Shown here: one piece after another, positions 6,941 through 38,909 of the stretch
Layout: each line of letters starts with the position of its first letter
Position numbering within the stretch: position 1 is the stretch's first letter
Assembly: GCA_020161265.1 (NCBI GenBank)
Contig: JAIUOC010000003.1
Location: forward strand, 299,024 to 363,023
Direction of reading: 5' to 3'
Origin: Chloroflexota bacterium
GTDB taxonomy: Bacteria; Chloroflexota; Chloroflexia; Chloroflexales; Herpetosiphonaceae
DNA: 64,000 nt
Notes under the pieces: model-generated
Databases searched by the model: none
The model's input: the letters and a program-made list of their open reading frames with translations, nothing else
What the model was told of the DNA's origin: nothing
Program-made: the position numbers and the translations under genes

Positions 6941-8416
6941 TTAGGGAGCGACGGTCAGCACCAGCGCTTTGGCCAAATCGGTGAAGATATTCGGCAAAAT
7001 TCCCACAGCAATAATCCCAATTACGGCGACGATCACGCCCAACGAGAGCGAGGCCGTGGCATAGGTTGGTTGTGGCTCAGTGGCTTCGGCATCGCGCATC
7101 CACATCGTCACAATCACCCGCAAGTAGAAGAATGCCGAAATCACACTGGTAACCACCCCGATAATCGCCAGATAATCGAGGTTGGCATCCCAAGCGGCGC
7201 GGAAAATGCCAAACTTGCTGGCAAAGCCGGCTGTTGGTGGCACGCCCGCCAACGAGAACATAAACACGGTCATCGCTAGCGCCAACAATGGGCTACGCTT
7301 GCCCAAACCGCGTAAATCGCTCAATTCAAACACGGGCATGCCGCGATTTTCTAAAGCGATTAGCACAGCAAACGCGCCAAGATTGGTCAAGGTGTAAGCC
7401 AACAGGTAAACCGTGAAGGCGCTAATGCCTTTTTCGCTGGCTGCCAACACGCCCAGCAACATATAGCCAGCGTGAGCAATCGACGAATAAGCCAGCATGC
7501 GCTTGAGGTTGCTTTGGGCAACCGCCACGATATTGCCATAGGCCATGGTTGCAGCGGCAAATAAACCAAACAGCAATTGCCACTCAGGCTTGAGCGCAGG
7601 AAATGCTACATTCAAGAAACGCAACATGGCTGCAAACGCCGCACCCTTAGTCGCAACCGACATGTACGCGGTGACTGGTGTAGGCGCACCTTCATAAACG
7701 TCAGGTGTCCAAGCGTGGAAGGGGAACATTGAAACCTTGAAGCCCAAGGCAATCAATACAAAGCCAACCCCAGCCAACAAAATTGGATCATCAATTGCTT
7801 TGCCTGTGCTTTGCCAAGTGCTCAATTCGTTGGCAATTTGGGCTAAGTTGGTTTTGCCGGTCATGCCATAAATCAAGGCAATGCCATAGACCAAAAAGCC
7901 AGCCGCAAAACCACCAAGCAACAGATATTTAATCGCTGCTTCGCCCGATTTGAACTGCGGCACGGCAAAGCCGGTTAGCACATACAGCGCAATCGAGAGC
8001 GTTTCAACCCCAATGAAGATTGTTACAAGGTCGGTTGATTGAACCAAGAACAACATCCCCGAGGTTGCAAATAACACCAAGGGATAAAATTCGCCTTGGC
8101 TGAGATTTTGGCGTGGCATGTAATCAAAGGCAATCAGCAAGGTCAAGGCTGTGCCCGCCAGCAAAATCCAATTTACCAATACCCCAAACTTGTCAAACAC
8201 CAACATGTCTGAGAAGCCCGAGATAGTTGAGCCATAATCCAGCGCACCGAGCGCCGCCGTCACGCCAAGCCCAATCAGGCTCAACGTGAGCAAAACCCGC
8301 CGATCCGAGGTGAACATATCGACAATCAATACCAACATCGCCCAAATCATCAGGAATGCTGGCATGCCTAAGACTGTCCAGTTAATCTCCGGCGTGATAA
8401 ATGTTAAATCATTCAT
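6941..8416 (-). CDS. nuoN: NADH-quinone oxidoreductase subunit N
   Basis: 491-aa polytopic membrane protein at the end of the nuoI-N series. Confidence 0.85.
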   Translation of the reverse strand: MNDLTFITPEINWTVLGMPAFLMIWAMLVLIVDMFTSDRRVLLTLSLIGLGVTAALGALDYGSTISGFSDMLVFDKFGVLVNWILLAGTALTLLIAFDYMPRQNLSQGEFYPLVLFATSGMLFLVQSTDLVTIFIGVETLSIALYVLTGFAVPQFKSGEAAIKYLLLGGFAAGFLVYGIALIYGMTGKTNLAQIANELSTWQSTGKAIDDPILLAGVGFVLIALGFKVSMFPFHAWTPDVYEGAPTPVTAYMSVATKGAAFAAMLRFLNVAFPALKPEWQLLFGLFAAATMAYGNIVAVAQSNLKRMLAYSSIAHAGYMLLGVLAASEKGISAFTVYLLAYTLTNLGAFAVLIALENRGMPVFELSDLRGLGKRSPLLALAMTVFMFSLAGVPPTAGFASKFGIFRAAWDANLDYLAIIGVVTSVISAFFYLRVIVTMWMRDAEATEPQPTYATASLSLGVIVAVIGIIAVGILPNIFTDLAKALVLTVAP

Positions 8417-8434
8417 TCGAACTCACGCTCCGTC

Positions 8435-9988
8435 TTATTGGCCAGCAATCAGTGGCGCAGCATTAGCAACGAAGGCTTCAAGCGCCTTGATCGTTGTTTC
8501 CATTGGGCGAGTAAAGTATGACGAGTAGAGACCAATTACCAACATCAAGATACAGAGTGGTAACAAAATCGCTACTTCACGGCGGGTCAAATCGCTGAGG
8601 TGTGGCGTGCGGCGTTCGCTAAATGGCCCCGAAGCAATGCCTTGGAACATCTTGAGCAAATAGACCGCTGCCAAAATCACCCCAACTGCGGCAAACGCGG
8701 TGAACGTCCAGCCGATTGGCGAATCGAACGCGCCGAGCATAATCAAGAATTCGCCGACGAAGCCGTTCAGGCCAGGCAAGCCGACCGAGGCCATCGTGGC
8801 AAACAACAGGAAGTAGACGAACACTGGCACAACTTTCCACAAACCGCCGTAATCGGCCAATTCGCGGGTGTGAGTGCGTTCGTAAACCATCCCAATCAGC
8901 AAGAACAACGCGCCAGTGCTCAACCCGTGGTTGATCATTTGCAGCACTGCGCCTTGCAATCCAACTTCATTCAGCGCGAAAATCCCCAAAACGATAAAGC
9001 CCATGTGGCTGACTGATGAGTAGGCCACCAGCTTTTTAATATCGCTTTGAGCATACGAAAGCACTGCGCCATAGATGATCCCAATCACTGCCAGCAAGGC
9101 AATTGGCCGTGCCCATTCCTGGGCAATTTGTGGGAACAACTGGACGCAGAAGCGAATCATGCCGTAGCCGCCCATTTTCAGCAGCACCGCCGCCAGAATT
9201 ACCGAGCCAGCGGTTGGGGCTTCAACGTGGGCATCGGGCAACCATGTGTGGACGGGCCACAATGGCACTTTGACCGCAAATGCCACGAAGAACGAGAGGA
9301 ACAGCAATTTTAATTCGGTATCCGACAAGCCAAATTGATTGATATTAGCCATCAAAGTTTGCACTTGGAAGGCGGTATCAGTTGGTAAGCCTTGTTGGGC
9401 CAAATATTTGTAATTGAGCAAGCCCAAGGCAATAATGCCGATCAACATAAACACCGAGGCAGCGAAGGTATACAAGAAGAACTTCACTGTGGCATAAATG
9501 CGGCGCTTGCCACCCCACATCCCAATCAAGAAATACATTGGAATGAGGGTGAATTCCCAGAAGATATAGAACAAGAACAGGTCTTGAGCGAGGAACACGC
9601 CCAACATCCCAGTTTCTTGCAACAGAATTAGCATCAAAAAGTTGTTGGTTTTCTCTTCAACATTCCAGGCACTCCAAATTGCCAAAGGAGTGACGAAAGT
9701 TGTCAACAATACCAACCACAAACTAATGCCATCAAGACCCAACTCGTAGCGCACGCCCCAATCTGGAATCCAGTTGAAATATTCGTAGAACTGAAGCCCA
9801 GCGGCATCGTGCTTGAAATTGAACAAAATTGGCAATGACACGGCAAAAACGAGTGTGCTCCAGCCCAAGGCAAAAATTCGGGCTGCTCCGCGTTGGCCGC
9901 GCATAAACGCCAGGATGATCGCACCGACGGCGGGTAAAAACACCACCAGCGATAAGATCGTAAAACCTAAGTCGTTTGTATTCGTCAA
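8435..9988 (-). CDS. nuoM: NADH-quinone oxidoreductase subunit M
   Basis: 517-aa antiporter-like subunit, e.g. 'WLPDAHVEAPTAGSV'. Confidence 0.9.
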   Translation of the reverse strand: MTNTNDLGFTILSLVVFLPAVGAIILAFMRGQRGAARIFALGWSTLVFAVSLPILFNFKHDAAGLQFYEYFNWIPDWGVRYELGLDGISLWLVLLTTFVTPLAIWSAWNVEEKTNNFLMLILLQETGMLGVFLAQDLFLFYIFWEFTLIPMYFLIGMWGGKRRIYATVKFFLYTFAASVFMLIGIIALGLLNYKYLAQQGLPTDTAFQVQTLMANINQFGLSDTELKLLFLSFFVAFAVKVPLWPVHTWLPDAHVEAPTAGSVILAAVLLKMGGYGMIRFCVQLFPQIAQEWARPIALLAVIGIIYGAVLSYAQSDIKKLVAYSSVSHMGFIVLGIFALNEVGLQGAVLQMINHGLSTGALFLLIGMVYERTHTRELADYGGLWKVVPVFVYFLLFATMASVGLPGLNGFVGEFLIMLGAFDSPIGWTFTAFAAVGVILAAVYLLKMFQGIASGPFSERRTPHLSDLTRREVAILLPLCILMLVIGLYSSYFTRPMETTIKALEAFVANAAPLIAGQ

Positions 9989-10034
9989 GGGTTACTCCTT
10001 GTGAAGTTGCAAGCCGAGGCCTGCGCTCCACGTC

Positions 10035-12119
10035 CTAGCGCAACGCAAAGAAGCCAAGCACGATCACCACACCGATCACAAACATCAGTGCATACGAGCG
10101 TACATAGCCCGATTGGAACGTTCGCAAGCCGCGACCCGACAAGCCGACAAGCTCTGCCGTGCCATTAACGATGCCATCAATAATTTTGACATCGAAGAAC
10201 TTACCAAAGAAGCTAGCCAAGGCCTTGTAGGGCTTGACCAAAACCGCGTTGTACAACGCATCAAAGCCCCATTTTTCCTCAAGGATGGCATAGAAATCGC
10301 CGCCCCAGTGGTGCAACAGGTCGCGTTGGTTGGGCTTGATCCGTTTGTGCTTGGCTGCCCAATTGTAGAGATAGAAGCCTGCGGCAAACGATGCCAAGCC
10401 TAAGATCGTTACAATTGCGGCGATGTTGAGGTGGAACTTAGCAGCTTCTTCTTCGACGATTGGCTCAAGCCATGTGGTTAATGGATGCCAGCCAGGAACG
10501 TTGATCAAACCACTGGCGAGGGTCAAGCCTGCCAAAATCCACAATGGAATCGTCATCCAGCGGCTGCTTTCGTGGGCATGAATGTGCTGATCACGTTGTT
10601 CGCCAAAGAAGACCATTGAGATTTGGCGGCCCATGTAGAACGAAGTCAAGACTGCGCCCAACACCAACAGCATGCCAACTGTGCGATGGTCGTGATCAAA
10701 GGCATGGCCGATGATTTCATCTTTCGACCAAAAACCCGAAACCAAGGGGAAGCCGATCAAGCCCATCGTCCCAACAATATATGTCCAGAAGGTGGCGGGC
10801 ATTTTCTTGCGCAGACCGCCCATCTTGCGCATATCTTGCTCGTTGCCAAAGCCATGAATCACTGAGCCAGAGCCAAGGAACAAGAGCGCCTTGAAAATCC
10901 CGTGGGTCAGCAGGTGGAACATCGCGGCAACGTATGCTCCCATGCCCACGGCTGCCACCATAAAGCCCAATTGCGAGACGGTCGAGAAGGCCAGAACCTT
11001 CTTGATATCGTATTGACCGAGCGCAATTGAAGCAGCGACCAAAGCGGTAGCAACCCCAATAAAGGTTACAGTGCTTTGAACCGATGGCGATAATTCAAAG
11101 ATTGGATGGGTGCGGATCATCAAATACACGCCAGCGGTAACCATGGTTGCGGCGTGAATCAAGGCCGAAACAGGGGTTGGGCCAGCCATTGCATCGGGCA
11201 ACCAGACAAACAGCGGAATTTGCGCCGATTTACCAGTTACGCCAAGCAACAGCATAAAGGCAATCGCCCCAGCCGCCGTGTATTGCGTGCCCATAAAGAA
11301 GGTGCTGTATTGTTGCAGCGAGAAGACCGTCCCTTGCTCCAAGACTTCGCGGAAGACCAATGAATGCAAGAAGGTACCATCGGGTTTACGCGCCAAGGCC
11401 CAAATTGCAAACATCGCCATCAACAAGCCAAAGTCGCCAACCCGGTTGGTTACAAAAGCTTTGACTGAAGCCCATGGTGGGTCGCGTTGTTCAAACCAGA
11501 AGCCAATCAGCAAGAACGAACACAAGCCCACGCCTTCCCAACCTAAGAAAAGCATCACAAAGTTGTTGCCCATGACGAGCATCAACATTGCCACAATAAA
11601 TAAGTTGAGGTAGACGAAAAAGCGGGTAGGCCGTTCATCGTGGCTCATATAGCCTACGGCATAGAGGTGAATTAACGTCCCTACGCCAGTGACCAAGAGC
11701 ATCATCGTGACCGAAAGTTGGTCGATCAAGAAACCAAAAGGAACTTCCAAATCGCCAAAGGCCATCCAGTTCCAATAGGTTACATCGAACCAACGATTAT
11801 TTTCGCCCAATGTGGTTGTGGCAGGCATACCCAGCAACTCAATCAGAGTTGCGACGGTCAGCACAAAGCCCAAACCAACCATGACGCTGGCAATCAAGCC
11901 AGAGCGTTTAGCGGTGGGATTATCGCCATGTCCATGGTGCGCGTCACCGTGGCCATGCCCGTGATCATGCCCATGGTCGTGGTGGGCGTTGGCGCGACTG
12001 AGACGCAAATCGTTCAGCCCCAACAGAGTATTGATCACGACACCGAGCAGTGGCAGCAACGGCACAAGCCAAATTAATTCCGCCATAAGTTCTCCAGTAG
12101 ACACTTCGGCAAGGTGCAA
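10035..12119 (-). CDS. nuoL: NADH-quinone oxidoreductase subunit L, with a His-rich N-proximal insertion
   Basis: 694-aa antiporter-like subunit, e.g. 'WLPDAMAGPTPVSALIHAATMVTAGVY'. Contains 'HHDHGHDHGHGHGDAHHGHG' near the N-terminus. Confidence 0.9.
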   Translation of the reverse strand: MHLAEVSTGELMAELIWLVPLLPLLGVVINTLLGLNDLRLSRANAHHDHGHDHGHGHGDAHHGHGDNPTAKRSGLIASVMVGLGFVLTVATLIELLGMPATTTLGENNRWFDVTYWNWMAFGDLEVPFGFLIDQLSVTMMLLVTGVGTLIHLYAVGYMSHDERPTRFFVYLNLFIVAMLMLVMGNNFVMLFLGWEGVGLCSFLLIGFWFEQRDPPWASVKAFVTNRVGDFGLLMAMFAIWALARKPDGTFLHSLVFREVLEQGTVFSLQQYSTFFMGTQYTAAGAIAFMLLLGVTGKSAQIPLFVWLPDAMAGPTPVSALIHAATMVTAGVYLMIRTHPIFELSPSVQSTVTFIGVATALVAASIALGQYDIKKVLAFSTVSQLGFMVAAVGMGAYVAAMFHLLTHGIFKALLFLGSGSVIHGFGNEQDMRKMGGLRKKMPATFWTYIVGTMGLIGFPLVSGFWSKDEIIGHAFDHDHRTVGMLLVLGAVLTSFYMGRQISMVFFGEQRDQHIHAHESSRWMTIPLWILAGLTLASGLINVPGWHPLTTWLEPIVEEEAAKFHLNIAAIVTILGLASFAAGFYLYNWAAKHKRIKPNQRDLLHHWGGDFYAILEEKWGFDALYNAVLVKPYKALASFFGKFFDVKIIDGIVNGTAELVGLSGRGLRTFQSGYVRSYALMFVIGVVIVLGFFALR

Positions 12120-12128
12120 GGCCGTTGC

Positions 12129-12431
12129 CTAGCCCTTGAGCGTATTCACGTCATCAATGTTGGTGGTCTTTTTGGCACGGAAAATCGACACCAACAGCGC
12201 CAAACCGACTGCGACTTCTGCCGCAGCGACTGCAATCACGAAGAATGTGATAATTTGGCCATCGCTTTCAGCACGTGCACGGCTAAACGCAATTAACGCC
12301 AAATTGGCCGAATTGAGCATCAACTCGACCGACATAAACATCACGATTACATTGCGACGCACCAAGACCCCAACGACTCCAATCGTAAAAAGAATTGCGC
12401 TCAAGAGCACATATGCGTTGGTTGAAATCAC
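12129..12431 (-). CDS. nuoK: NADH-quinone oxidoreductase subunit K
   Basis: 100 aa with 3 TM helices, positioned between nuoJ and nuoL. Confidence 0.85.
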
Positions 12432-13018
12432 GATTGGCTCTCCTCACGGGCAACCACCCGCCGACGGGTCAGCACGACTGTCCCGACTACTGCAATCAAG
12501 AGCAAAATTGAAATCACTTCAAAAGGCAAGAGATAGGTGCTGAAAAGTTTGGCGCTGATCGTGGTTGGTGCGCCAATGTTGGTTGCATCGGCCACCGGAG
12601 CATCGATTAATTTCGTGCCACGATAGGCCACATAGCCAATCTCGGCCAATAATGCGACACCCAAGACGAGGCCAGCCGGCTTTTGCCAGCCGATTTTCTC
12701 CTCGCCAAGCTCGGCATTTTCAGCGCCCAACAGCATGATCACGAACAGGAACAGCACCATAATCGCGCCAGCATAAACCGTCACTTGAACAGCACCGAGA
12801 AACGGCGCACGCAGCAAAAAATATAAAATGGCGACCGAGCAGAAATTCAAAATCAAAAACAGCGCACTATGCACTGCATTGCTGCTCAGCACCATTGCCA
12901 AGGCTGCCCCCACCGCCACAATGGCCGTGGTGATAAACAAAAATGTTTCCATGGACACTCCCAGATAAAGGATGAAGGATGAGGGATGAAATTCAAACCC
13001 CGTTGGCACGCCCTTCAC
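12428..13018 (-). CDS. nuoJ: NADH-quinone oxidoreductase subunit J
   Basis: 196-aa membrane protein whose end overlaps the nuoK start by 4 bp. Confidence 0.8.
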
Positions 13019-13131
13019 ACTTTGTACCGTTGGCTACCCTTAGCGATAAAGCAGAAGCTTGGGTGCTGAGCAATCAAATTCAGCCTGAACTAGCCCATCC
13101 TTCATACTTCATCCTTCATACTTCATACCTT

Positions 13132-13638
13132 TTATAGGTCTATTTGGGCCGGTGGGTTAAGTTGTTTGCCAGTTTGTTGCAAGACTGGTGGCACTTCGCC
13201 GTGGCCTTTATCGACCGCAACCAGCAACATATCTTGGGTATAGATCGAGGCGCGGCGGTCGTAGAAGGCCAATTCATATTGGTGTTCAAGCACAATTGCA
13301 TTGGTGGGGCATGCATCTTCGCAGTAGCCACAGAAAATACAACGCAACATGTTAATTTCATAAACAGCCGCATGGCGTTCGCCTGCCGAGCGTGGATTCG
13401 CCGGATCGTTCTGGCCAGGCACCACATAAATTGCATCTGCCGGACAAGCAGCGGCACACAGCGAACAACCGATACACCGCTCTAGACCATTGGCAAAACG
13501 CTTCAGCTCATGCCGACCACGGAAGCGCTCGCGGACAGGCCGTTTGACCTCAGGATATTCAACGGTCACAGGCTTTTTGAAGAGATATTTCGCCGTGGTT
13601 TTGAGACCCTTAAAATAGGCCATCGTTCCTTTCAGCAT
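13132..13638 (-). CDS. nuoI: NADH-quinone oxidoreductase subunit I (2x[4Fe-4S] ferredoxin)
   Basis: Two CxxCxxCxxxCP motifs, 'CIGCSLCAAACP' and 'CIFCGYCEDACP'. Confidence 0.9.
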   Translation of the reverse strand: MLKGTMAYFKGLKTTAKYLFKKPVTVEYPEVKRPVRERFRGRHELKRFANGLERCIGCSLCAAACPADAIYVVPGQNDPANPRSAGERHAAVYEINMLRCIFCGYCEDACPTNAIVLEHQYELAFYDRRASIYTQDMLLVAVDKGHGEVPPVLQQTGKQLNPPAQIDL

Positions 13639-13986
13639 TGGCGATTCCTTTCTCGGTGCGTGACTCCTATGGCGTTCACGCCAAAACCGCCACTATGCAT
13701 CAAGCGGCGGTGCAATGTCATTCGAATCGGTGCCGTCGCGGGCGCGTTTATTTTATCACAATCTCTTGATAAGCCAAACAGGGGGAATAAGGATGAAGGA
13801 TGAATTATGAGGGATGAAATTAAGAACATAGAACATAGGGCGATCGGCGTTTGGCTTTGGGCGATTGGCTATCGGAACGTTGTGTGGTATGACACTCATT
13901 CGCGATAGCCAATCGCCTATAGCCTATAGCCTTTTGTCACATCTTCGTGCGCTTCGTGGATCAAAATATCCCAAATCCTCGATGTT

Positions 13987-15195
13987 CTAGGCTAGAGTTT
14001 CTTGCTCATTCCAACCAGCAAAAGGATCATCGATTTGCCAAGTTGCGGCTGGTTGTTGCCATTCGTGATCGCTGACCAAACATGCATCCAACGCTTGTTG
14101 CAACCATTGTTGATCAAAATCTTGGCCAATAAAGACTAGTTCTTGGCGACGATCACCAACTTGCTCATCCCATAGGGCTTCAATTTCGGCACGTTCCTCG
14201 GCAGTTTCGGGCCATTCGCTCTGATCGCTATCGGCCCACCACTCGCCAGCTGGCTCAACACGGCAATTTTGGCCTGCTTGCGAGAGTAATCCAGCGGTTG
14301 TGGGCTGTGAAATTACCCAAAAGAAGCCTTTGGCGCGAATCACTCCAGGCCAATCGTTATTCACAAACTCCCAAAAACGTTGAGCTGCAAATGGCCGTCG
14401 AGCACGATACACCCAACTGCGAATGCCATATTCCTCGGTTTCGGGTGTATGTTCACCACGCAATTCGGCCAGTCAGCCAGGTGCAGCGCTCGCTTGATCA
14501 AAATCAAACAAGCCAGTATTCAGAATTTCGCTGAGTGGCACTTGACCATGCTGGGCATGAATAATCTTGGCCTGCGGATTGAGTTTATTTAGCAATTCGT
14601 GTAAATGAGTTAATTGTTCAGCACTGATTAAATCAGTTTTATTAATGATCAACACATTGCAAAACTCAATCTGATCGATCAATAAATCGACCAAGGTGCG
14701 CTCATCAGCCTCGTCAATTGCCAAATCACGGTCGCGCAAATCGTGGGCAGCATTGAAATCGTGCAAGAAATTGAGGGCATCAACCACCGTCACCATCGTA
14801 TCGAGTTGAGCAATTTCGCCCAAACTGAGGCCTGATTCATCTTCGAAGGTAAAGGTTTCGGCTACGGGCAATGGCTCCGAAATGCCTGTCGATTCGATCA
14901 ACAGATAATCGAAACGGCCAGCACGAGCCAACTTACCGACCTCAAGCAGCAGATCTTCACGTAAGGTACAGCAAATACAACCATTGCTTAACTCGATCAA
15001 TTGTTCTTCGACCCGATTGAGCGCAAGCTCGCCTTGACCTACCAACCGCGCATCGATATTAACTTCGCTCATATCGTTGACGATGACGGCGACCCGCAAA
15101 CCCTCGCGATTGGCCAAAATATGATTTAATAAGGTGGTTTTCCCCGCACCGAGAAACCCAGAAAGTACAGTTACAGGCAGCGGCAACTTCGACAT
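13987..15195 (-). pseudogene. COG0523/CobW-family G3E GTPase (metallochaperone) interrupted by an in-frame TGA. The N-terminal GTPase part is 14473-15195 and the CobW_C part is 13987-14463.
   Basis: P-loop '[11 protein letters not shown]' and a 'CICCTL' metal motif are in the upstream ORF. The downstream ORF, in the same frame, carries a CobW_C-like 'EEYGIRSWVYRARRPF'. The two are separated only by TGA at 14473-14475 plus 3 sense codons. Confidence 0.55.
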
Positions 15196-15340
15196 TTGGC
15201 TTTAATCCTTATTTATTGATACCATGTATCATTATAATCGATTTTTGAATTCGTCAAGCAGCGTTTGACAAAACGACCAAAGCGGAGTATACTTCAGCAC
15301 TGTTGAACGGCAAAATCGCCCAAAACACACAACTATATAA

Positions 15341-15416
15341 TCCCTGATAGCTCAGTTGGTAGAGCAATTGACTGTTAATCAATGGGTCCTAGGTTCGAGT
15401 CCTAGTCAGGGAGCCA
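15341..15416 (+). tRNA. tRNA-Asn (anticodon GTT)
   Basis: Cloverleaf read by hand: acceptor tccctga/tcaggga, D-arm gctcagttggtagagc, anticodon loop cuGUUaa, T-arm ggttcgagtcc, encoded CCA. Confidence 0.85.
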
Positions 15417-15436
15417 CTTCTTTTTACAATTGATAA

Positions 15437-15512
15437 TCCCTGATAGCTCAGTTGGTAGAGCGGTTGACTGTTAATCAGCATGTCCTAGGTTCGAGTCCTA
15501 GTCAGGGAGCCA
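15437..15512 (+). tRNA. tRNA-Asn (anticodon GTT), second tandem copy
   Basis: Near-identical to the first copy, differing only in the anticodon stem and variable loop. Encoded CCA. Confidence 0.85.
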
Positions 15513-15516
15513 CAAC

Positions 15517-15560
15517 CGACAAACGTCCATTGAGCAATCAGATGGGCGTTTGTTAATTAA
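15517..15560 (+). terminator. Stem-loop after the tRNA pair
   Basis: acaaacgtccat...atgggcgtttgt inverted repeat directly 3' of the second tRNA. Confidence 0.4.
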
Positions 15561-15833
15561 GACACAAAAAATAAAGCACTGCGTCAAACACAGTCGCTTG
15601 GTATCAATACATCATCAGGGATAACCACCGTATTCCTGATATGGACAACTGGCAGCGGTCACATGAATGGCTACCATTCATACAACGATCTCAGCATGCC
15701 AAGAATCTTGTCCCCTTTATCTATTCATTTGGTAAGGTGCGTTAGTTTACAGAGGATACTCCACTCGCGATATAGCTGACGGTCGCCAAACACAAAGCAT
15801 ATATCGCAATAGAACTGGCCCAACTATCAGACA

Positions 15834-16100
15834 CTAGTTAGTCTGCTGAAGTTGGGCCAGTTCTACTTTTTTAGGATAAAAAAGTCCAACGGGTTCATTA
15901 TCTGGCACTTGTACCAGTAAATCACCAGGTGAAACTTCAAGAATTGAGCAAATCTTATCTAAGATTGGCAGGTCTACGCGTGTCGTATAACCACGATACA
16001 AACCTTTTGCAGTGTTATACGAGATATCAGCTCGATCTGCCAGATCTTGAATAGATAACCCTTTTTCTTCTGCAAATCTTCCCACGTTTAATACGATCAT
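15834..16100 (-). CDS. XRE (Cro/CI-type) HTH transcriptional regulator
   Basis: 88 aa with an HTH_3-like 'LSIQDLADRADISYNTAKGLYRG'. Confidence 0.8.
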   Translation of the reverse strand: MIVLNVGRFAEEKGLSIQDLADRADISYNTAKGLYRGYTTRVDLPILDKICSILEVSPGDLLVQVPDNEPVGLFYPKKVELAQLQQTN

Positions 16101-16176
16101 AAAGACCCCCTGTAACTTGGCCGTAAGTCTATTAGATCTGTTTTATTTTATCAACTTTTATTCTTTTCGACTTGTT

Positions 16177-16250
16177 GCCATTAGGTTGCTCCATTTTATA
16201 ATTTCAACTTTTCGACTTGTTGAAATTATAAAATGGAGCAACCTAATGGC
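16177..16250. promoter_or_regulatory. Perfect 32-bp inverted repeat (arms 16177-16208 and 16219-16250, 10-nt spacer) overlapping the RBS and ATG of the downstream gene. Candidate operator.
   Basis: gccattaggttgctccattttataatttcaac is the exact reverse complement of gttgaaattataaaatggagcaacctaatggc. A direct 13-mer ttttcgacttgtt precedes each arm. Confidence 0.5.
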
Positions 16251-16743
16251 ACACACAAAAGCGGTCACCTATAACTTCAAGAATCGGGATTTCGATGCGT
16301 CCGTGAACGGCGAGTACATTGGCTCATTCCCAACCGATCTGGATGCACGAATGGCCTGCAATCGTTTAGTGTTGGAATTGATTGAGTTGGATAATCGGGC
16401 TGTTGAGGAAGCTGAAGAAGTAATGGCCATTGGCGTGGTTGAACCCGTTGCCGAAGCTAGCGCTGAGGTTGCTTTGTTTGAAGTCGTCGATCTGATTCCC
16501 ATGCCTGTGGTTACCGCCACGACCTATGCCAACACCCCTATTGATGCGCTTGCCCGCACCATGGTCATTTTGAGCCGCAACTGGCAACGGGCGATTCGCG
16601 CAGGTCGGTATACTGATGCCGAGCGGATTGAAGCTCATGAACAGGCCGTCCGCAGCCAATTCCGCTCCCTCTCCTGTCCTGCATTGCCACCCACGTCTGC
16701 TACTCAGCAGTGCCCAACGACCAGTCGCCAGATTAACTATTAA
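16246..16743 (+). CDS. Hypothetical protein (islet cargo)
   Basis: ORF with GGAG RBS 9 nt upstream of ATG 16246. No recognisable motif. Confidence 0.5.
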   Translation: MAHTKAVTYNFKNRDFDASVNGEYIGSFPTDLDARMACNRLVLELIELDNRAVEEAEEVMAIGVVEPVAEASAEVALFEVVDLIPMPVVTATTYANTPIDALARTMVILSRNWQRAIRAGRYTDAERIEAHEQAVRSQFRSLSCPALPPTSATQQCPTTSRQINY

Positions 16744-16833
16744 ACCCTTCACTGCTCTTCAAAGCAGCAAAGGGCCTCACATGACCGAGGTGCAGACTGC
16801 AACCTAGCCTCGGTCACGAAAGGATGATACCTG

Positions 16834-17151
16834 ATGTCACAGACCCATGTCAATCACGACCGCTGCCAACGCTTGGCGCGTGCCAGTGCGATTGTTCAAC
16901 TGGCTACTATTATTCAGGAAGAAGAAGGCCTCGACGACAACACCGCCTACACGCTGGCTGAACACGAACTCGATGCCATCGCTGTGACCGAAGCGGCATG
17001 GAGCGAACCGCAACCCCTCGCCATGCTTCGTATCCTGCCAACAGCGTGGGGGATCGTGCTGGTGCGCAACGGTTCGCGCGTGGTCGTACATCGTGCCGAT
17101 ATTCCGGCGGTGCTGGAATCCTTGACCCGTTGGGCTGCTGTATCCTATTAA
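16834..17151 (+). CDS. Hypothetical protein
   Basis: 105-aa ORF with no motif. Confidence 0.4.
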   Translation: MSQTHVNHDRCQRLARASAIVQLATIIQEEEGLDDNTAYTLAEHELDAIAVTEAAWSEPQPLAMLRILPTAWGIVLVRNGSRVVVHRADIPAVLESLTRWAAVSY

Positions 17152-17174
17152 TAGATATAGCGAGGACTATTGTT

Positions 17175-17534
17175 ATGGCTGATACTGCATCACCGCTCGC
17201 AAGCATCAAAGTGGAGCACCAGATTCACTTCACCCTTGATGGCTTTCCTTGCACCACCTCGGTGGCAGGTGCGACCGCCGATCAACTCAAAGTCGTGATT
17301 GATCGCCTCAAAGCGATCGGAGCACAACCACCCACGACACACCCAGCTCAACCAACCCAACCAGTCGCCGCTGCTGCACCACCCAGTGCTCCCGCCCAAC
17401 GCCTCTGCCCAACCCATGGTTCGCCCTTGCAGTTACGCCAAGGCACGCGACGCGGTGGCAAGCCCTACAAATTTTGGAGCTGCAACCATACCGATGCGGA
17501 TGGCAACTGGTGTGATCATACCGAGAAGCCGTAG
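17175..17534 (+). CDS. Hypothetical protein with a C-terminal zinc-ribbon-like motif
   Basis: 'CPTHGSPL...FWSCNHTDADGNWC' resembles a small C4/C3H zinc ribbon. Pro/Ala-rich linker. Confidence 0.4.
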   Translation: MADTASPLASIKVEHQIHFTLDGFPCTTSVAGATADQLKVVIDRLKAIGAQPPTTHPAQPTQPVAAAAPPSAPAQRLCPTHGSPLQLRQGTRRGGKPYKFWSCNHTDADGNWCDHTEKP

Positions 17535-17696
17535 TGGAGGGTATTCATGGAATTAACCGCTGCGGCGATTCGTCGCTATGTGACCACCCGCTTGGCCACG
17601 CACATTGCTGACATACACGCGCTCCCTAGTCCACATCCTGAATGGGATGTTGGGTATCTTGATCAGTAAGTCTCTAGGAATAGCAGATGTCACTCC

Positions 17697-18002
17697 CTAA
17701 CTCTGAGCGTCATCCAGCAGTATTCTGCTCCATTCCAGAAGCTGTTGGCGACCAGATTCGCCGACCAACTTCTCGCTGATTGCTAAGCGAACAACCTGCC
17801 GCCGAACCGCTTCAAGGACAACATCATGATAGTGGTTCACGATCCATTTGTGCCAGTCCTCGGGTGTGGTCTGATTATCAGCAAGGTGGATAAGAAAGGC
17901 GGCAAATTCCTGGCGGTACGATGTGGACATAAACAGCCTCCAGGGCGGCACCGCCACCCAGTTCTGGGGATATGACACCCGCAGCGTCGGGAGGGGAGCC
18001 AT
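17697..18002 (-). CDS. Hypothetical protein
   Basis: ORF only. The start is uncertain. Confidence 0.3.
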   Translation of the reverse strand: MAPLPTLRVSYPQNWVAVPPWRLFMSTSYRQEFAAFLIHLADNQTTPEDWHKWIVNHYHDVVLEAVRRQVVRLAISEKLVGESGRQQLLEWSRILLDDAQS

Positions 18003-18725
18003 TGTTCGGTATGCTTGGACGGACCACCAACCAAGCTTTACTGCCCAAGGAGACTCCCCTCATGAACACGTTGCCAGCCTTGACCAGTCAACGTATTTTA
18101 AATGATACCATGGCCCTGCTCCAGACCTATATCCCACTTCAAGCCACAGGCTATCGCTGCCAGACAGCCTATGGGACGGCCTTGAGCGATCTGGCAGCAT
18201 AGATACGAGAGACCCTCGATGAACCCCTGCCGCCCCTCGTTGATCGCGAAGCCGATGGGCTGGCTATCGCGATTGACTGACTGATGATGGATGACCAGCC
18301 AGCAGTTCAAATCAGGCTGTTGGCGAATGTTTTTTTAGCGCGAAACGGTTATGATAATGGATATTGTCGCACATGGTCGGTATCGACCTGCTACCCCATA
18401 TGATGTTTAACGCGACACGTTCGCACCCCGTACTCAATTCCATGCCCCAGGCACCGCCGTTAAATCCACCCCAACCCCCGCACGATGGCCAGCAGAAGGA
18501 GTTTCCAGCTGTGGCCAAGCAACTGCGCGGACGATGGCACAACATCGCCAAACTGCACTAGCCATGTGACCCAAGAGTTGATTGGGTTGCAACTCCTCAG
18601 CACTGGCATACGTACACACCGCAGTGATACCAAGATTCCGTGTTGCACCAATCCAACTGGAGTGTCTGTCAGGTGAAAACGATACGTAGGCCCCAACAAA
18701 TAATCTTATTAGAGGAGAGACCCCT

Positions 18726-19676
18726 ATGCATACCAGACGGCTGGCCCTGTTAGCGAGCTTGTGTGCCGTGTTGCTTGGCTTTGCGGTGGCTAAACAACCT
18801 GAAGGAACACGCGCCAAGGCATTATTAACACCAACCCCAACGCCACTTCGCTCGGAATTAATTCTGAGCGGCCCGACCGAAGTTTACGTTGGTGAACTGT
18901 TTTTGATCATGATTCAATATGTCAATATTGGTGTGCCTTCCACCACAATCACCCTGAGTCCGAACAATCTGGCGCACTTTGATCCACCGATGATGATGCC
19001 GTGTAAGTCCAATGAACATATAACAGGGTGTCGCGCAATCACATTACGAGCAACGGCTGGGGGACTATTAAAAATTTCTGCATCGGCGACAGGCGAAGTA
19101 CCGATTGCTGGTGGTGGTTGGGCTTGGGGCAGTGCTCAGGAACGGAATCCATTGATGATCAATGTTGTTGATTCCAATGTGACGGCTACCGCAACAGCGA
19201 CTAACACGGCAACACCATGCCCAACTACCGTGGCGATGCGTGATAGCGCTTGTATCGGAACCCCAACGATCACGCCAACTAGTGGAAGTCCAACGGTCAC
19301 ACCACTGGTTAAAGAGTTGATTTTGAGTGCGCCACCGTTGGTGAATGTTGGCGATGCATTCAGTTTGACGATTCAGTATGTCAATATTGGGGTACCCTCT
19401 ACCGGAATTACCCTGAACCCAATCGGCACTGTCCAGTTTGATCCACCATTGACGATGCCCTGTACGTACAATCAACATCCAACGGGATGTCGCACGATTG
19501 GGTTGCGAGCGGTTGCCCCTGGTACGATTGAGATTGACGCTGGGGCGACTGGTGAAGTGCCAATCGCTGGTGGCGGCTGGGCTTGGGGTAGTGCCCAGGC
19601 ACGGAATTCTATTAATGTGCAAGTCCGTAGTGTTTTAGCCTATAAAACCTTCATTCCCTATGCCAAAGTTCAATAA
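18726..19676 (+). CDS. Secreted protein with two tandem ~100-aa internal repeats
   Basis: Signal peptide 'MHTRRLALLASLCAVLLGFAVA'. The block 'ELILS..IQYVNIGVPST..ITL.P......FDPP..MPC......TGCR.I.LRA.A.G...I.A.ATGEVPIAGGGWAWGSAQ.RN' occurs twice. Confidence 0.6.
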   Translation: MHTRRLALLASLCAVLLGFAVAKQPEGTRAKALLTPTPTPLRSELILSGPTEVYVGELFLIMIQYVNIGVPSTTITLSPNNLAHFDPPMMMPCKSNEHITGCRAITLRATAGGLLKISASATGEVPIAGGGWAWGSAQERNPLMINVVDSNVTATATATNTATPCPTTVAMRDSACIGTPTITPTSGSPTVTPLVKELILSAPPLVNVGDAFSLTIQYVNIGVPSTGITLNPIGTVQFDPPLTMPCTYNQHPTGCRTIGLRAVAPGTIEIDAGATGEVPIAGGGWAWGSAQARNSINVQVRSVLAYKTFIPYAKVQ

Positions 19677-20152
19677 TGGGAAGGATAGAAAGTTGGGGGA
19701 ATGAAAGACGATGACAAATGGCAACCCACGGGAGCGCCAATGAGTTGAATGATTGGGATGTCGAAGCCGAGGAGGCGCTCTACCTATTGTGTTGCCCACA
19801 ACCAGGGAGGCTACGCCGCCAGCTCCTGAGACCAGTGACCCCGACCCGTATTTCGGTATAGCCATCGACCGCAGTCGTCGTGGTCAACAGGGTGTGCATG
19901 ACGTGACTGATCGGCGGTATGATCTCCATGGATGTTCCTTGGATTCATCATGAGTGTTGCAATGTCATGATGCCATGGGGCGTCCGTTAATATTAAGCTT
20001 GCTGCGCATGGGGAATTTACTTTTAGTTCCTAAAAGCACGCAGATCTGCCTTTCCAGAAGGAATCACGATTATGCATTAAATCGTGATTCCTTCTTTATT
20101 ATGGAGTTCTTTCAGGCAATCAGGTTTGTGCTTTTTAAAGGGAGTTGTGAAT

Positions 20153-23100
20153 CTATCGATTTATAACATATGGAATATAGACATAATTAATTGGATCGAC
20201 TGGAATGACGTAGATTTGCGTATCGGTGAGAATCGCTGGCTGTGGAATACCCGTCCGATCACTGGCTTGGGCTGCACCTAAAGCGAAGTTTAGGCTGCCA
20301 GGGTTGGTAGCACGTAAGGTAATTGTGGCTAGTTGTCCATTGCCTGATGCTCCAACGGGGCTAGTACCGATGCTATAGGCTGCAAAATTAAGCGTTCCCC
20401 TGACCAGATCGATCTGCGGCCCGATCGGATAAAATTGACGACCACTGCTACTTGGATAGCCATCAATGGTAGCGTTGAGGATTTCGAGCTTGCTTGGGCT
20501 AAATGGTAGTGTGAACTCGAAAGAACCAAGATCATTGACATCACTAATTACTACTCCAATGGTAAATGGGACTCCAACTTGAATTGGCGCTTTGGTTGGC
20601 TGTAAACTAAATGTGGTGGGCCATGGCGTTGCAGTTGATGTCAAGGTTGGCCGTGGAGCAGAACACTGAGTTCCCCAACGCACCGCTACTCTCTGAATGT
20701 CGATAATATCGATATCGCCATCAGCATCAATATCATAAAGTGGCGCATAGAGTGGGTCGCCGAGGTGTGTATTCCAGCGGTAGGAGATTCGCTGGATGTC
20801 GATGATATCAACATCACCATCAAGATCAAAATCGCCAAGGCAGTTGGCAACCTGAATCGATCCATTGCGAGTTGCGACTGTAATTGCCTGACCATTGATA
20901 TTGCTGACCTGAACATTACTGAAGGTGAGCGGTGCTGTGCCAACCGCCCGAGGACGCAACCGGATATGGGCAAGCGAACCCTGGCCACTCGCGCCTGCTG
21001 GATTCGCCCCAAGACTAAAGCCGCCAAAGGTTATCGTCCCTGCATTTGGATTGATCGTCGGCCCAACGGGGGTAAAGTTGCGGCCAGTACTAGCAGGAAA
21101 TGCCCCCATAGTAACTTGCTCAACCGTTACAAGCGCTGGGCTATACGCTAGCGTAAACTGGAACGAGCCAAGTTGCTGAATTTGCGAGATTGCCACTGTG
21201 GCCGTAATTGCTTGCTCTAAACCTCCAGATAATGCTGGTGGCGACAGATAGACCAGTGGTTGATTACTAGGTGGCGCAAGCACAGTAATATAGTTTGGCT
21301 TAACAATTGTGTTGGAGCCACCAGGGCCATCGACGAGCAAGCGCACTGCATAGGTGCCTGGTTGGGTGTAGGTATGGATTGGATTTGGAATGCTGTCCTC
21401 GCCGCCATCACCAAAATCCCAACGTCTACTAGCGATTGTTCCACTTGATTGATCGCTGAAGCTGACGGTAAGCGGCGCGACACCAGTCAGTGGAGTTGCC
21501 CCAAAGTCTGGCGTTGGTGGCAATTGATCCGCCATCAAGGTACGTTCCTCAAGGGCAATTTCGTTAATAAATGCCCCAGTTGTGCCATTTGTGCGCACTA
21601 TGCTGACGATGATGCTCTCATCACTAACATAGGCACTCTGGGGGATATCAAGGACAGGGCGCTGAACTTGGAAATTACCAGTATTAATTGGTGACCCTAG
21701 CTCAATGCCATCAATCTGGACTTTTTGAATCCGCTCGCTTCCGTCACGCTGCCAAAAACTCGTATGCAGTTGATAGCGTCGATCACGCTTGAGTCCATCG
21801 AAGCGATAGCGCAATGTAGCATCACTTTGATCGATTCGAACACTCTGATAGGGCAGGGTTCCCCAGATACTATTGCGAACTCCATCGAGCGCACCAAAGC
21901 TTAATCCACTGCTTGGGGTGGTTCCTGGATAACCAACCTCGGTAAGTGAACCAGCATCAATATAACGATAATCGATTGGATGCAAGCTCACATAGGCAAC
22001 AACTGCACCGTCAATACCTGGCGCTTCTATGCTAACCTCAATTTTACGATCAGCGTATAATGCTGGATCAATTCGCGTTGAAAGCCGTTGAATTTGGCCA
22101 TTGGCAAGGCTTACTGGCCCAACAATAGGATTACCATCAACGTTAATCACTTCCTGTCGGCCAACACCATCGCACTCAAAGAGCGTAATATCAAGATGAT
22201 AGAACCGTCCAGGCTGAAGTTGATCAAACTGATAGCGTACCTGCCCATCGGGATCGATTCGAACAGTTTGGTGTGGTGCTGAACCACAACTACTGATCGT
22301 ATCAGGCTCTCCGATATCAATCACTCCATAGCCAAGGCTCGGCGTATAGGTTGCCTCGCTAGCTGCGCCACTATCCAGATGGATTGGGCCATTGATGCCT
22401 ACGGCAATCGGTTGCCACAACGTGTTGTTGGCTTCGTTGGATTCAGATATCTCGGCTTGGCTATCGATGCTTGCAGTTAATTGATACAAACCAAACTGGG
22501 TTGGAGTCCATGGAAGTACAAGGGTTGTGGTGCTGGCAGCAGTTAGCATGGGGATGCTTTGGCTGCTAATGATCGCACCTGTTTGGCCCGTTGCGCCTAC
22601 CATTAAGCGTAGATCATGCCTACCTGCGGTTGTTTGACCAGCATTGTGAACTTGAATTGTTACGCTGATCGGCTGGCCAATCAATGGCTCTGAATCAGAA
22701 AACTGAATCCGGCTAACCTGAAGATCGGCGCGGGTTCGAATCGGTAGGGTTGCTGTTACCACATTATTGGTCTCGTTAATCTCTGCTACCCGATCGAATG
22801 GGTCTACCACGACCCGAACCGGAATTGTTCCTTGAAAACCTTCGGTTGGGAATGGAATCGATACTAAGGCATCGCCACCTGCCGGAATATTGGCAACAAA
22901 TCGACTGCCTAGGTACCAATCGCCAAAAATTGGTGATTTGGCGTAGACACTGGTAATAAATCCGCCGGTGGCTAGATTGCTTGGGTTGCGAATGCGGGCT
23001 TGGAGCTGAGCCTGCATGCCCTCAGTTGGGTTACTAGGATTTAAACTTAGCTCATGGGCTGCCAAACCTAGCTCGGTAGCACCGCCTGGGGTTGCAACGA

Positions 23101-26100
23101 GATTGAGCATATGCAGTTGTCCACTGGTATTGAGTGAAATTCGAATGGGTACGCTGACCATCCCTTGGGCATCAGGTGTTGCCGATGCCATGAAACTTGT
23201 CAGGCCAGCAGCGAGGTTGGTGGTTGAGAGAGTGGTTGGCAAGGTTGGCGAGTTGTTATAGCTCCACTCCCAATTGCCATTATTGCCAATATCGAGATTG
23301 ATTTGCAAGAAAGCGGCGTTCGATCTGGTTATGAGCAGATCGAGAGTTGTAGTGAGATAGCGAGCTTTTGGCAAACTAACGTGGATAACCTGTTCGCCAG
23401 CGCTGCTGAATTGGATTGTTCGCCCACTTTGCACATGGTAGCGTTGACGATCACGGAATGCTGTTGGGATATAGAGATTAATTTGGTGTGGGCTACCAGC
23501 AACTTTTTCGATGCTAAATGCCAGCATGCCAAAATGAGCAGTCGCGGTTGCGCCTGCAACGAGGTTAACGTTCACTGAGCTAGCACTCGTTGCCGCATAT
23601 CCATTGGGTAGGGTTGCATTAACGGTATAGGCAGCTGCCGTAAGATTGGTAAAACTATAAGCGCCTTGGGCATCGGTAACGCTGGTTTGTCCGGTTCCGC
23701 TCAGCGCAACATTAATGCCGGCAAGGCCATTCTCCCCAGGATTTTGGATTCCATTTTGATTAAGATCATGGAATACAATTCCGCTAATGCTTGCTTGCGG
23801 AATGAGCGCAAGATTAACCGTGGTTGTCGTGTTTGATTGAACCGTTACGCTGTTGGTACACGAATTACTACAAGCGTATCCAGCTTTTGGGGTAACAGTG
23901 AGGCTATAGGTTGCTGGCGGCACGTTGTTAAAGTTATAGTCGCCATTCGCATTCGTTGTAGCCGTCCCAACTGTATTTAAATTGATGTTAATCGTTGCCA
24001 ATCCTGCTTCACCAGGATCACGCACGCCATTTGCATTATTATCACTATAGACGCTGCCCGCAAGTGTGCCATAACAACCAAGCTGGGCTTGATTAGGTGC
24101 TGGAACGATATTCTCAATCCCAGTTACTGTATTGCAATACTCAAGCCGAATTGAGCCATGGCCACCAGCACCACCAATAAATCGTCCGCTTGGGCTGCCT
24201 GGTGGCACTAGTTGTGGTGCGCCGAGTGCGTTGATCCCATTCGCCGCTACCGATATCGTATCAGCGCGAAGATACATTTGCCCACCGCCGCCAGAGCCAG
24301 CAGCCACACGCCGATTGGTGCCATCATCGGACATAGTGCCATTTGCTTGCTGCCCATTGGCCCGAATCTGGCCAGTGATTGTGAGTTGACGGGCAAAAAT
24401 AAACACCAATCCACCGCCGCGTCCAGCCTGCGAATAGCCAGCGCCAGGGTTGATGCTGGTAGCACTCCCACCGCCACCGCCACCAAAATAGAGTCGTGTG
24501 CCATCGGTTGTACAGTGACCAATGCCACCGCGACCCCATGTACTGCCGCCAATATGTTCACCATCGCCTCCGGCTGCACAACCAGCGCCACCGCCGCCAC
24601 CACCAATCGCATCGGCAGCACCACCGCCTTGGGCCGATGGCGTGATGTTGGGGGTTTGGCAATAATGCGTGCTATTATTCGACGTGCAGATAATCCCTTC
24701 ACCCTGCCACTGATCAGTTTGATAACCATTGCCACTATCTCCACCACGAAAGCCGCTGGCATCGCCATTGATCAGCCCGCCGATTGTGGCATTATTTTGA
24801 CACATAAAGGCGATAATCCCACCAACGTGACCATTCCAAGCCAGCAAGGGTGTGATTGTGCCGCTGACTGGGCAATCGCTGTATTGTGGCACGCGCATAA
24901 TTTGGGCTTGGGCACGGTAGTCAATCGAGCTATAACTATGGCGCAAGGGTTGAGCTAAAGCAAAGGTTCCACTCCCAGTAACATCGCCAACTGCGGTATT
25001 GAGTTCCCACAAACCAGCAATTGAAGGGTCACCGCGAGTCTGATGAATCAATACTCGATCGCCGGGATTAATGCGCGAAACTGCATGCTGATCGACAATC
25101 GTAATCGCGGTTGAGCCAGCATTGCCACTGGCTATCCCAATACCAACGCCATTACTGGTATCAAGATTGCCATTTGCTGGCATGATGCCATCGCGACCAT
25201 CACCATAGCGATCGGTTAGATTCGTGGGCTGAGGTGTTGCCAGCGCAAGGCGAGCCTGCCGGAGGTTAACAACAATTCCCTGTAATAGCCCACGGCCAAT
25301 CCCAAGCAGGGTTTGTTGGCTTTGATCATAGAGACGGAGTGGTGTGACATGCAGTGCATCGCTAACAATTGTATCAACATAGGAAATGAGCTCACGTTGA
25401 GATCGCGAACCAGTTACCACAACATACTCATCCCAAGGCCGATATGGGCTGATCGGGAGCGCTTGGGCTGGCGTGGTTGGAGCTACGATGACACCCTGAA
25501 CTTGCAGGTTGTGGCTCGGACGTTGAGGATCACTAGTCCGTAGTTGAATGGTGCGACTGAACGGCCCAACCGGGATATAATAGGTGTCCAGAAGTACCTC
25601 AAGTATGCCCATATCACCAGCCGCAATCGTTGTGGTGGGCCGTGATTGGCTTGTAACCGGTATTCCTGAGACTTCCACATGGGCTTGGAATTGCCCAATG
25701 GTATCGGTATTACAGCCGAGACAGTTGTTGGTTGCTAAATACAGTCGCCCACTTGTGGAGCTGGCTGCGCGATAGCTGGTTCCTGCCATAAATGGCGTAT
25801 TATTGCCAACTCGGGCAATCAGGCTGAATTGACTTGCTCCAGGGGCTGTCCATCCGCTAGCTGCGTCTACTCCGTTGCCATCAGGCCCAAAGCAATTTGT
25901 ACTACTGTCATAACAGATATTGCCAGTTGCCTGAATACCAATTGCATCCCCATGACGAACCTCAAGGCCTGTATCCATCCAGCTAATTTCACCAGAAATT
26001 GCCAGATCACGTCGCCCTCCAGCGCCTAAAAGGGTGGTGCGCAAGCCAGCACGGCCCTCGTTGGGCAAGCCAAAGTTATGGCGAAGTTGACTGCCTTGGG

Positions 26101-38393: not shown

Positions 38394-38909
38394 GGCTGTC
38401 CTCCTGATGGGGATCTATCAATAGACCTACAGGAATGGACACTACGCACACTATTACAACATCAATAAGCAAAATAATACTCTGATGGTTCTTTCTAGAC
38501 TGGACGAACAGATTATACACCAATATATTTTCTTGCGGAACAGGAATATCGCTGCCATGCGGTGCGTGGGATGGTTGCGATGTCGCGCCCATTTGACTAG
38601 AGACTATCGCATAAATGGTAGGATTCCTCTATTGTTGTCGATGGAGAAATCGCATGGAATTGACGAATTGCGCAATGGCAGGTTGTCGCACCCCTCATCC
38701 CTGAACCACCCCGCCGTCCTGATGGGTGTGGGCGGCCTTGGCGGCCAGTTCACTTTTGGACGGAATTCTCTGGATCTTTTGGGTTAGTGCTCCTTTTTTA
38801 GCCGAAAAATTCAATCCGTCTTTTGCATATTTTCTCAATAGTGGATACGATCATCCAAATCCTTTATCCCCAATTCTAAAGTTCTTGGATTATCCCAAGA
38901 AAGGATGTT

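Follow-up and report, generated by a model that had tools for sequence, protein, structure and literature searches.

A probable left-arm remnant of a tRNA-Asn-integrating temperate phage in a Herpetosiphonaceae genome

The tRNA-Asn locus and its intact counterparts

The DNA analysed here, referred to as the window, is a 64,000-nucleotide stretch (positions 299,024 to 363,023) of contig JAIUOC010000003.1 from a metagenome-assembled genome (MAG) of the Herpetosiphonaceae, phylum Chloroflexota (GCA_020161265.1). The element of interest is a group of small genes, headed by a minus-strand XRE-type regulatory gene, that lies downstream of a cobW gene and two tandem tRNA-Asn(GTT) genes (Table 1). A preliminary description, made from the sequence alone, had placed two near-identical tRNA genes here, and ARAGORN and Rfam confirmed both; they are separated by 20 nt and share 93% identity across 81 nt. 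The regulatory gene, the gene of unrecognised family divergent from it (165 aa, rather than the 166 aa first given), the 105-aa gene, the 119-aa zinc-ribbon gene and the minus-strand 101-aa open reading frame (ORF) were likewise all present. A 40-aa ORF, an ORF of 63-76 aa and a perfect inverted repeat of 33 nt, which spans the start of the 165-aa gene, had been overlooked. The description of the region as an AT-rich islet did not hold, as only 15.5-16.3 kb, corresponding to the repressor and switch region, is AT-rich (37-43% GC), whereas 16.3-18.7 kb, containing the early operon, is at 53-59% against a background of ~50%; the deviation is mild and runs both ways.

The same locus, with the same 165-105-119 gene order, was found in Herpetosiphon gulosus, H. 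aurantiacus DSM 785 (and related MAGs), H. geysericola and H. llansteffanensis. In these relatives cobW is followed by two tRNA-Asn genes, one to five minus-strand helix-turn-helix (HTH) genes and genes for proteins of 165/182, 103-105 and 116-119 aa, and then by a variable slot, a conserved 120 bp, a tyrosine recombinase gene (int1) and a variable cargo slot. The phage body comprises three small genes, an Amidase_2 lysin, the small and large terminase, an SPP1-type portal and the capsid. The order in H. geysericola and H. llansteffanensis runs from nuo through cobW, the two tRNA-Asn genes, the HTH genes and the genes for 182/181, 103 and 116 aa to the integrase, amidase, terminase, SPP1 portal and capsid. 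The DSM 785 region is represented in IMG/VR as a 34-kb viral contig, on which a 1139-aa ORF takes the tape-measure position and other large ORFs lie where tail genes would be expected; the right arm carries, on the minus strand, genes for an FtsK-like ATPase, a ParM-like protein, a zinc-ribbon/Toprim primase, a DUF3987 protein and a second tyrosine integrase (int2). The large terminase shares 28% identity with those of Arthrobacter and Microbacterium phages, and 26-32% with those of known phages.

The limits of the intact element are defined in H. gulosus, in which ~41 kb of phage DNA lies between two copies of a 374-bp direct repeat, attL and attR, that are about 95-96% identical to each other. 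The repeat starts with CTGTTAATCAATGGG in the anticodon loop of the first tRNA-Asn gene (equivalent to window position 15372), continues through the rest of that gene, the spacer, the whole of the second tRNA-Asn gene and another 215 bp, and ends with TTGGTAAGGTGCGTT(A). A full copy of the second tRNA-Asn gene is consequently contained in attR, and int2 adjoins attR. Because the repeats enclose both the XRE/165/105/119 module and the phage body, with int2 beside attR, the element carried by the intact relatives is a temperate phage integrating at tRNA-Asn, of which this module forms the left arm.

Within the window, a single copy of the attachment (att) segment is present and direct repeats at both ends are lacking. 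The segment closes with the 16-mer TTGGTAAGGTGCGTTA, which by alignment is also the first sequence common to the window element and a paralogous element in the same MAG (element B). No extra tRNA-Asn 3' end was found in the 64 kb with up to three mismatches allowed, nor any copy of the 16-mer beyond its expected position, and no ORF with a Phage_integrase domain occurs in 15.3-20.2 kb, in agreement with the preliminary description, which had noted neither an integrase nor a repeat of the tRNA 3' end. When compared site by site with the two H. gulosus copies, the segment was attL-like at 7 sites and attR-like at 11, and its assignment is ambiguous.

H. gulosus is the closest sequenced relative at this locus, with ~94% nucleotide identity. 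The two sequences are collinear at 93.8% over 8340-15743 (nuo, cobW, the tRNA genes and 230 bp) and at 93.6% over 16246-18365, including the variable slot with ORFs of 40, 77 and 72 aa, after which they break. Identity to DSM 785 was 90% at the nucleotide level in the comparison of repressor and early operon, and NuoI is identical to that of DSM 785. Homology to every relative ends after ...CGGTTATGATAAT at 18358, ~35 bp ahead of the int1 start codon, and the break falls at the same point against four other elements. The conserved 120-bp region that ends here precedes the first recombinase gene in every intact relative, retains ~90% identity even in element B, and contains an intrinsic terminator (18298-18324 followed by a T-run) and a GATAAT box. 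Searches by tblastx with the prophage bodies and int1-bearing loci of the relatives recovered no prophage-body gene anywhere in the 64 kb, and no packaging, head, tail or lysis gene.

The repressor and early operon are thus homologous and syntenic to those of the intact prophages of H. gulosus and DSM 785, whereas everything from ~35 bp upstream of int1 through attR is missing from the window. What is left is a repressor gene, a 76-bp palindrome with mirrored promoter-like sites, the early operon and a terminator. Given these findings, the 2.6 kb at ~15729-18358 is very probably a left arm that has survived from a temperate tailed phage whose integration target is the first tRNA-Asn gene. The earlier suggestion of a decayed island at a tRNA integration site is thereby borne out, as relatives carry the same genes as the left arm of a ~41-kb tRNA-Asn prophage. 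The preliminary description had stated that a gene order conserved in all relatives, at normal GC, would speak against such an origin. Formally this applies, as the order is conserved in four species, but it lies there inside a complete prophage and is no argument against a mobile origin.

Table 1. Coordinates of features at the tRNA-Asn locus of the window.
Feature	Position	Strand	Basis or remark
tRNA-Asn(GTT), copy 1	15341-15416	+	ARAGORN; Rfam 72.7 bits
att-homology segment (3' part of first tRNA-Asn gene, spacer, second tRNA-Asn gene, 215 bp)	15372-15744	+	H. gulosus repeat
tRNA-Asn(GTT), copy 2	15437-15512	+	ARAGORN, Rfam; entirely within the att-homology segment
16-mer TTGGTAAGGTGCGTTA	15729-15744	+	Alignment; end of att repeat, left limit of phage-specific DNA
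Hairpin, perfect 16-nt arms, then T-run	15810-15865		Conserved sequence; across 3' end of XRE gene
XRE/Cro-C1-type repressor, 88 aa (XRE88)	15834-16100	-	Pfam HTH_26 E=1e-15; PHROG transcriptional repressor families
Two direct copies of CTTTTCGACTTGTTG, putative operators	16163-16177, 16208-16222	+	Flank left arm of palindrome
Promoter-like site TTGCCA-16-TATAAT	16175-16202	+	Consensus match
Perfect palindrome, 76 bp (33-nt arms, 10-nt loop)	16176-16251		Arms 16176-16208 / 16219-16251
Promoter-like site GTGCCA-16-TATAAT	16252-16225	-	Consensus match
First early gene, 165 aa	16246-16743	+	Locus tag LCH85_08690
Second early gene, 105 aa	16834-17151	+	dN/dS 0.14-0.15
Third early gene, 119 aa	17175-17534	+	C-terminal Cys/His zinc-ribbon-like motif
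Variable slot	17547-18202		Content same as in H. gulosus
ORF, 40 aa	17547-17669	+	
ORF, 101 aa	17697-18002	-	77 aa in public gene calls
ORF, about 63-76 aa	about 18011-18202	+	
Conserved 120-bp non-coding pre-int1 region	18238-18358	+	Alignment
Strain-specific DNA, 20.4 kb	18359-38778		Outside element; in place of phage body and attR
Signal-peptide protein, 316 aa	18726-19676		Outside element; internal duplication of 459-nt period
Relic of XRE88-like gene	38779-38855	-	Just upstream of DMT transporter gene

Repressor, switch region and early operon

The 88-aa XRE88 protein passes the curated thresholds for HTH families, with 58.1 bits for PF13443 (cut-off 22) and 29 bits for PF01381 (cut-off 23). 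It is the sole HTH gene product of the window remnant, whereas two to five HTH genes were counted in the relatives by HTH comparison and one to five on the minus strand by the survey of the locus. The N-terminal 66 residues of XRE88 resemble the promoter-proximal repressor type of the relatives, and identity to a 142-aa protein of H. geysericola is 63% overall and 75% over the first 69 residues. The tail of XRE88, KVELAQLQQTN, is that of the leftmost HTH gene type in the relatives, and the protein therefore looks, from these alignments, like a fusion of two HTH gene types. The hairpin across the 3' end of the gene is kept in sequence at the left end of all related elements, where it encodes the common C-terminal tail ...ELAQLQQTN. 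The segment from 15745 to 16245, comprising the XRE gene and the switch, has no DNA-level homology to the matching region of any relative, and homology to the relatives always restarts exactly at the ATG of the 165-aa gene.

Between the repressor gene and the early operon, the two promoter-like sites are mirror images of one another that lie face to face and match the consensus at 11/12 and 10/12 positions. The right arm of the palindrome bears the ribosome-binding site (RBS) and ATG of the 165-aa gene. Folded as RNA the palindrome reaches -56.6 kcal/mol (z = -14), and on an RNA that carried both arms such a hairpin would sequester the RBS and start codon of the 165-aa gene; the predicted transcription starts place the arms on separate RNAs. 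Rfam returned only miRNA-precursor matches to the palindrome, which are meaningless. The switch region of DSM 785 contains another palindrome, a 17-nt perfect inverted repeat, at the equivalent position.

The three early genes are intact, with ratios of nonsynonymous to synonymous substitution (dN/dS) of 0.06-0.15 and synonymous divergence (dS) close to that of the neighbouring cobW gene. The 165-aa protein shares 92% amino acid identity with its DSM 785 counterpart (dN/dS 0.12). In its predicted model, three strands and a helix make up the N-terminal domain, which an acidic disordered linker connects to a conserved helical hairpin at the C terminus. Homologues of the full protein were found in Herpetosiphon only, whereas a profile search of 1.84 billion representatives with the N-terminal 50 residues of the family matched 466 clusters, many of them stand-alone proteins of 50-80 aa; 0/10 of the matches tested had a Pfam family. 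This domain (~50 aa, window 16246-16400) carries the motif K.I.YD..T.DFA.YLNGE.VGY. In the 119-aa protein a Pro/Ala linker separates a small N-terminal domain from a zinc-ribbon-like domain at the C terminus. Pfam, PHROG and PADLOC gave no significant match for the 165-, 105-, 119-, 40- or 101-aa products beyond weak zinc-ribbon matches for the 119-aa protein, and sequence searches of the PDB with the small proteins were empty. When viral contigs were scanned, neither the products of the three early genes nor the conserved pre-int1 DNA found a match. The variable slot that follows the early genes holds a methyltransferase gene in H. aurantiacus and a 76-aa gene in H. geysericola.

A small divergent repressor and several unknown small proteins beside tRNA genes could also describe a self-contained, XRE-controlled toxin-antitoxin or anti-phage defence cassette, as the preliminary description had tentatively suggested. 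The PADLOC-DB defence models yielded weak HTH-type matches to the XRE protein (PDC-M69A, E=0.002; capH, E=0.036; none below 0.002) and one to the 101-aa ORF (E=0.015); those to the XRE protein reflect generic HTH similarity. No toxin or antitoxin domain was detected in the adjacent small genes with Pfam, PHROG or PADLOC, and the small proteins match no defence-effector family. In five other elements, moreover, a complete prophage carries the same genes within its att repeats, flanked by the repressor genes on one side and the recombinase gene on the other; they stand where an ordinary temperate phage has its early operon. A self-contained cassette is consequently very improbable.

The truncation point and the layered locus

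The sharp break ~35 bp ahead of int1 might also be expected if the module were a landing pad fixed in the chromosome, or a small element in its own right, with the phage inserting at the 120-bp region and the window representing the unoccupied site. The strong conservation of the 120-bp region would fit such an arrangement, as would int1, which is 94-96% identical across elements with modules merely 42-77% identical. However, the 374-bp att repeats of H. gulosus enclose module and body together, with the second integrase beside attR, and the landing-pad arrangement was rejected on this ground. A second copy of the 120-bp region is absent from every locus examined, a phage without the module would have no repressor or early genes, and the DNA to the right of the window break is missing from H. 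gulosus and is therefore not the expected host flank. Taken together, an unoccupied landing pad is scarcely credible.

It was also considered that the truncation could be an assembly artefact, arising from a wrong join at a repeat common to both elements of the MAG. The window element and element B are identical over the final 32 bp of the conserved region, and short-k Logan contigs from the same sample stop precisely at 18356 and, in element B, at the corresponding point. A 10,969-bp metagenome contig from the Joint Genome Institute (JGI), however, crosses the junction with 100% identity to window 13590-24558, and normal reads and large assembly k-mers are both longer than a repeat of 32 bp. 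Furthermore, the replaced block ends on its right within a relic syntenic with H. gulosus, which fits a real rearranged locus. A wrong join was for these reasons judged highly improbable.

Beyond the junction, a 20.4-kb block stands where the phage body and attR would be. It encodes the 316-aa secreted repeat protein, a 3182-aa protein, a NACHT protein and a 1857-aa VCBS protein, and has no orthologue at 90% protein identity in any sequenced Herpetosiphon. Its counterpart in H. gulosus spans ~38 kb (int1 to int2, attR and an older remnant). The preliminary description had counted the secreted repeat protein as part of the islet; the protein exists, but it lies outside the element, as homology to related elements stops at 18358. 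Its family is specific to Herpetosiphon and scattered over unrelated contexts, and its use as a marker of the right flank was dropped for that reason.

Homology to H. gulosus restarts at 38779, immediately upstream of the DMT transporter and UppP genes and inside what remains of an XRE88-like gene. This relic keeps only the first ~12 and last ~13 codons and occurs in H. gulosus as well; it records a still older phage element at the same site. The block from UppP to the CoA-disulfide reductase gene runs in the opposite direction to that of DSM 785, which raised the question of an inversion broken at the pre-int1 site. This reading was set aside because H. gulosus combines the window orientation with an intact prophage and because window 47-64 kb contains host and Cmr genes.

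Element B, a second element of the same phage family, lies outside the window in the LCH85_08330 region, downstream of a tRNA-Phe gene and three small genes. It has the same left end and the same pre-int1 region as the window element, with a divergent repressor region and module (42% identity for the 165-aa homologue) and an int1 that is 96% identical to that of H. geysericola. In the window, the 125 bp that follow the 16-mer share 97.5% identity with DNA beyond attR of H. gulosus, at the start of the older remnant there. Because of the non-homologous switch segment, the fusion-like XRE88 and this 125-bp match, the locus is read from these comparisons as one used repeatedly by related phages with divergent repressor regions, whose left arms have become layered. 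The window holds one remnant and one relic, and H. gulosus an intact prophage, a remnant and a relic.

Several of these observations weigh against the interpretation of the 2.6 kb as the surviving left arm of a phage. The phage body was replaced by foreign DNA, not simply lost, and the match to the older remnant together with the fusion-like repressor means that the locus did not arise by one clean deletion. The junction at 18358 sits at the 32-bp exact repeat common to element B, where the k=31 Logan contigs stop, and the join therefore depends on two assemblies, that of the JGI and that of the MAG. Promoters and operators were recognised solely by matching a consensus, and five promoter-like sites were found against 3.2 expected by chance. 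Finally, dN/dS was taken against intact prophages and so is no proof of selection acting on the remnant itself.

The intact prophages have features of their own. In these phages int1 is a second, XerD-like recombinase in the middle of the genome, far better conserved than the module that adjoins it, and, given the ParM-like gene, it might resolve dimers instead of integrating. The plasmid-like right arm could be a phage-plasmid-like replication module or a separate element integrated in tandem. Divergence of the prophage between H. aurantiacus and H. geysericola is similar to that of the host flank (88% nucleotide identity for the lysis and terminase genes, 87% for cobW). Together with the occupation of one locus in four species, this points either to a prophage that has long been inherited vertically or to reinfection, time and again, by phages diverging in parallel. 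A metagenome scan with int2 recovered distant recombinases only. The genome paper of H. llansteffanensis reports only an 'incomplete prophage of 16.2 kbp' detected by PHAST (PMC6210107), and no description of this Herpetosiphon phage family or its attachment site was found in the literature.

A scan of genome contigs with the CobW protein gave 63-71% matches from many phyla and no close relative. A metagenome scan with a 22-nt conserved motif gave nothing; JGI contigs bearing the motif exist, and these are therefore absent from the collection scanned. The cobW/zinc-chaperone-type GTPase gene of the window (13987-15195, minus strand) contains an in-frame TGA at 14473-14475, where all relatives have TGG (Trp241), splitting the 402-aa protein into 240 and 158 aa; the gene is either a pseudogene or affected by a sequencing error. 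The nuo operon is not beside cobW in DSM 785, where synteny breaks just after nuoI (window 13639-13986), and the nuo-cobW arrangement of the window is common to H. gulosus, H. geysericola and H. llansteffanensis. Further downstream, the segment 49108-57076 is AT-rich (34-46% GC) and encodes a type III-B CRISPR-Cas module with Cmr2/Cas10, Cmr3, RAMP proteins, Cmr5 and a Card1-type CARF protein; the module has syntenic counterparts in H. aurantiacus and H. gulosus.

Proposed function, known counterparts and significance

As a lysogeny-control module, the remnant would act through the XRE repressor, which would bind the repeated sites at the palindrome and repress the promoter that reads rightward into the early operon. 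This operon would comprise the 165-, 105-, 119- and 40-aa genes, with transcription stopping at the terminator at 18298-18324. The mirrored promoters are predicted to start within the 10-nt loop, each reading across the other, as in the P2/186 switch. Because the remnant is without integrase, replication, packaging and lysis genes, it would be unable to form a phage. On the sequence, the effect that most probably remains to it is immunity, mediated by the repressor, against incoming phages that share its operators. A broader proposal is that the remnant is kept as a working module in which the repressor and the 165-, 105- and 119-aa proteins together protect the host from related Herpetosiphon phages, that the mirrored palindrome is a distinct bistable switch, and that the N-terminal domain of the 165-aa protein is a widespread, undescribed domain of phage early regulation; this proposal is speculative and, on balance, unlikely.

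The cryptic prophages of Escherichia coli K-12 are defective prophage remnants to which the window element can be compared. Like these, it is a fragment at a tRNA site that has lost integrase, att repeat and structural genes while its regulatory genes are intact, with older relics adjoining. It differs in that its host is a filamentous Chloroflexota predator, in that the immunity and early arm alone remains, and in that its phage family has no cultured relative, in keeping with the low terminase identity to known phages.

P4, HP1 and mycobacteriophage L5 are tRNA-targeting phages with tyrosine integrases, the attP of which carries the 3' part of the tRNA gene. The H. gulosus phage resembles them in that its repeat begins in the anticodon loop of the first tRNA-Asn gene and restores that gene, and in the position of the integrase beside attR. 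Unlike in these phages, the repeat is unusually long, as it takes in a whole second tRNA-Asn gene and 215 bp, and the intact Herpetosiphon phage has a second recombinase in mid-genome; in the window this machinery is gone.

Phage immunity switches include cI/cro of lambda and those of P2 and 186, in which promoters stand face to face. The putative switch of the window has in common with them a repressor of the XRE/Cro-C1 type opposite an early operon, repeated sites, and two facing promoter-like sites within 80 bp. In contrast to these switches, the promoter-like sites of the window are exact mirrors within a perfect 33-nt inverted repeat that covers RBS and start codon, and a second HTH gene recognisable as Cro or Apl type is lacking.

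The remnant is an ordinary decayed prophage, a known kind of element and not a new system. Its recognition corrects the annotation of the locus: genes listed as 'hypothetical' belong to a family of temperate Herpetosiphon phages, of which they form the immunity and early arm, and these phages attach at the tRNA-Asn pair. For the biology of phage switches, small leads come from the palindrome with its mirrored promoters and from the N-terminal domain that lacks an annotation. The locus illustrates how phage integration sites gather layers of decayed left arms, and its intact relatives provide an entry point to the nearly unstudied phages of predatory Chloroflexota.

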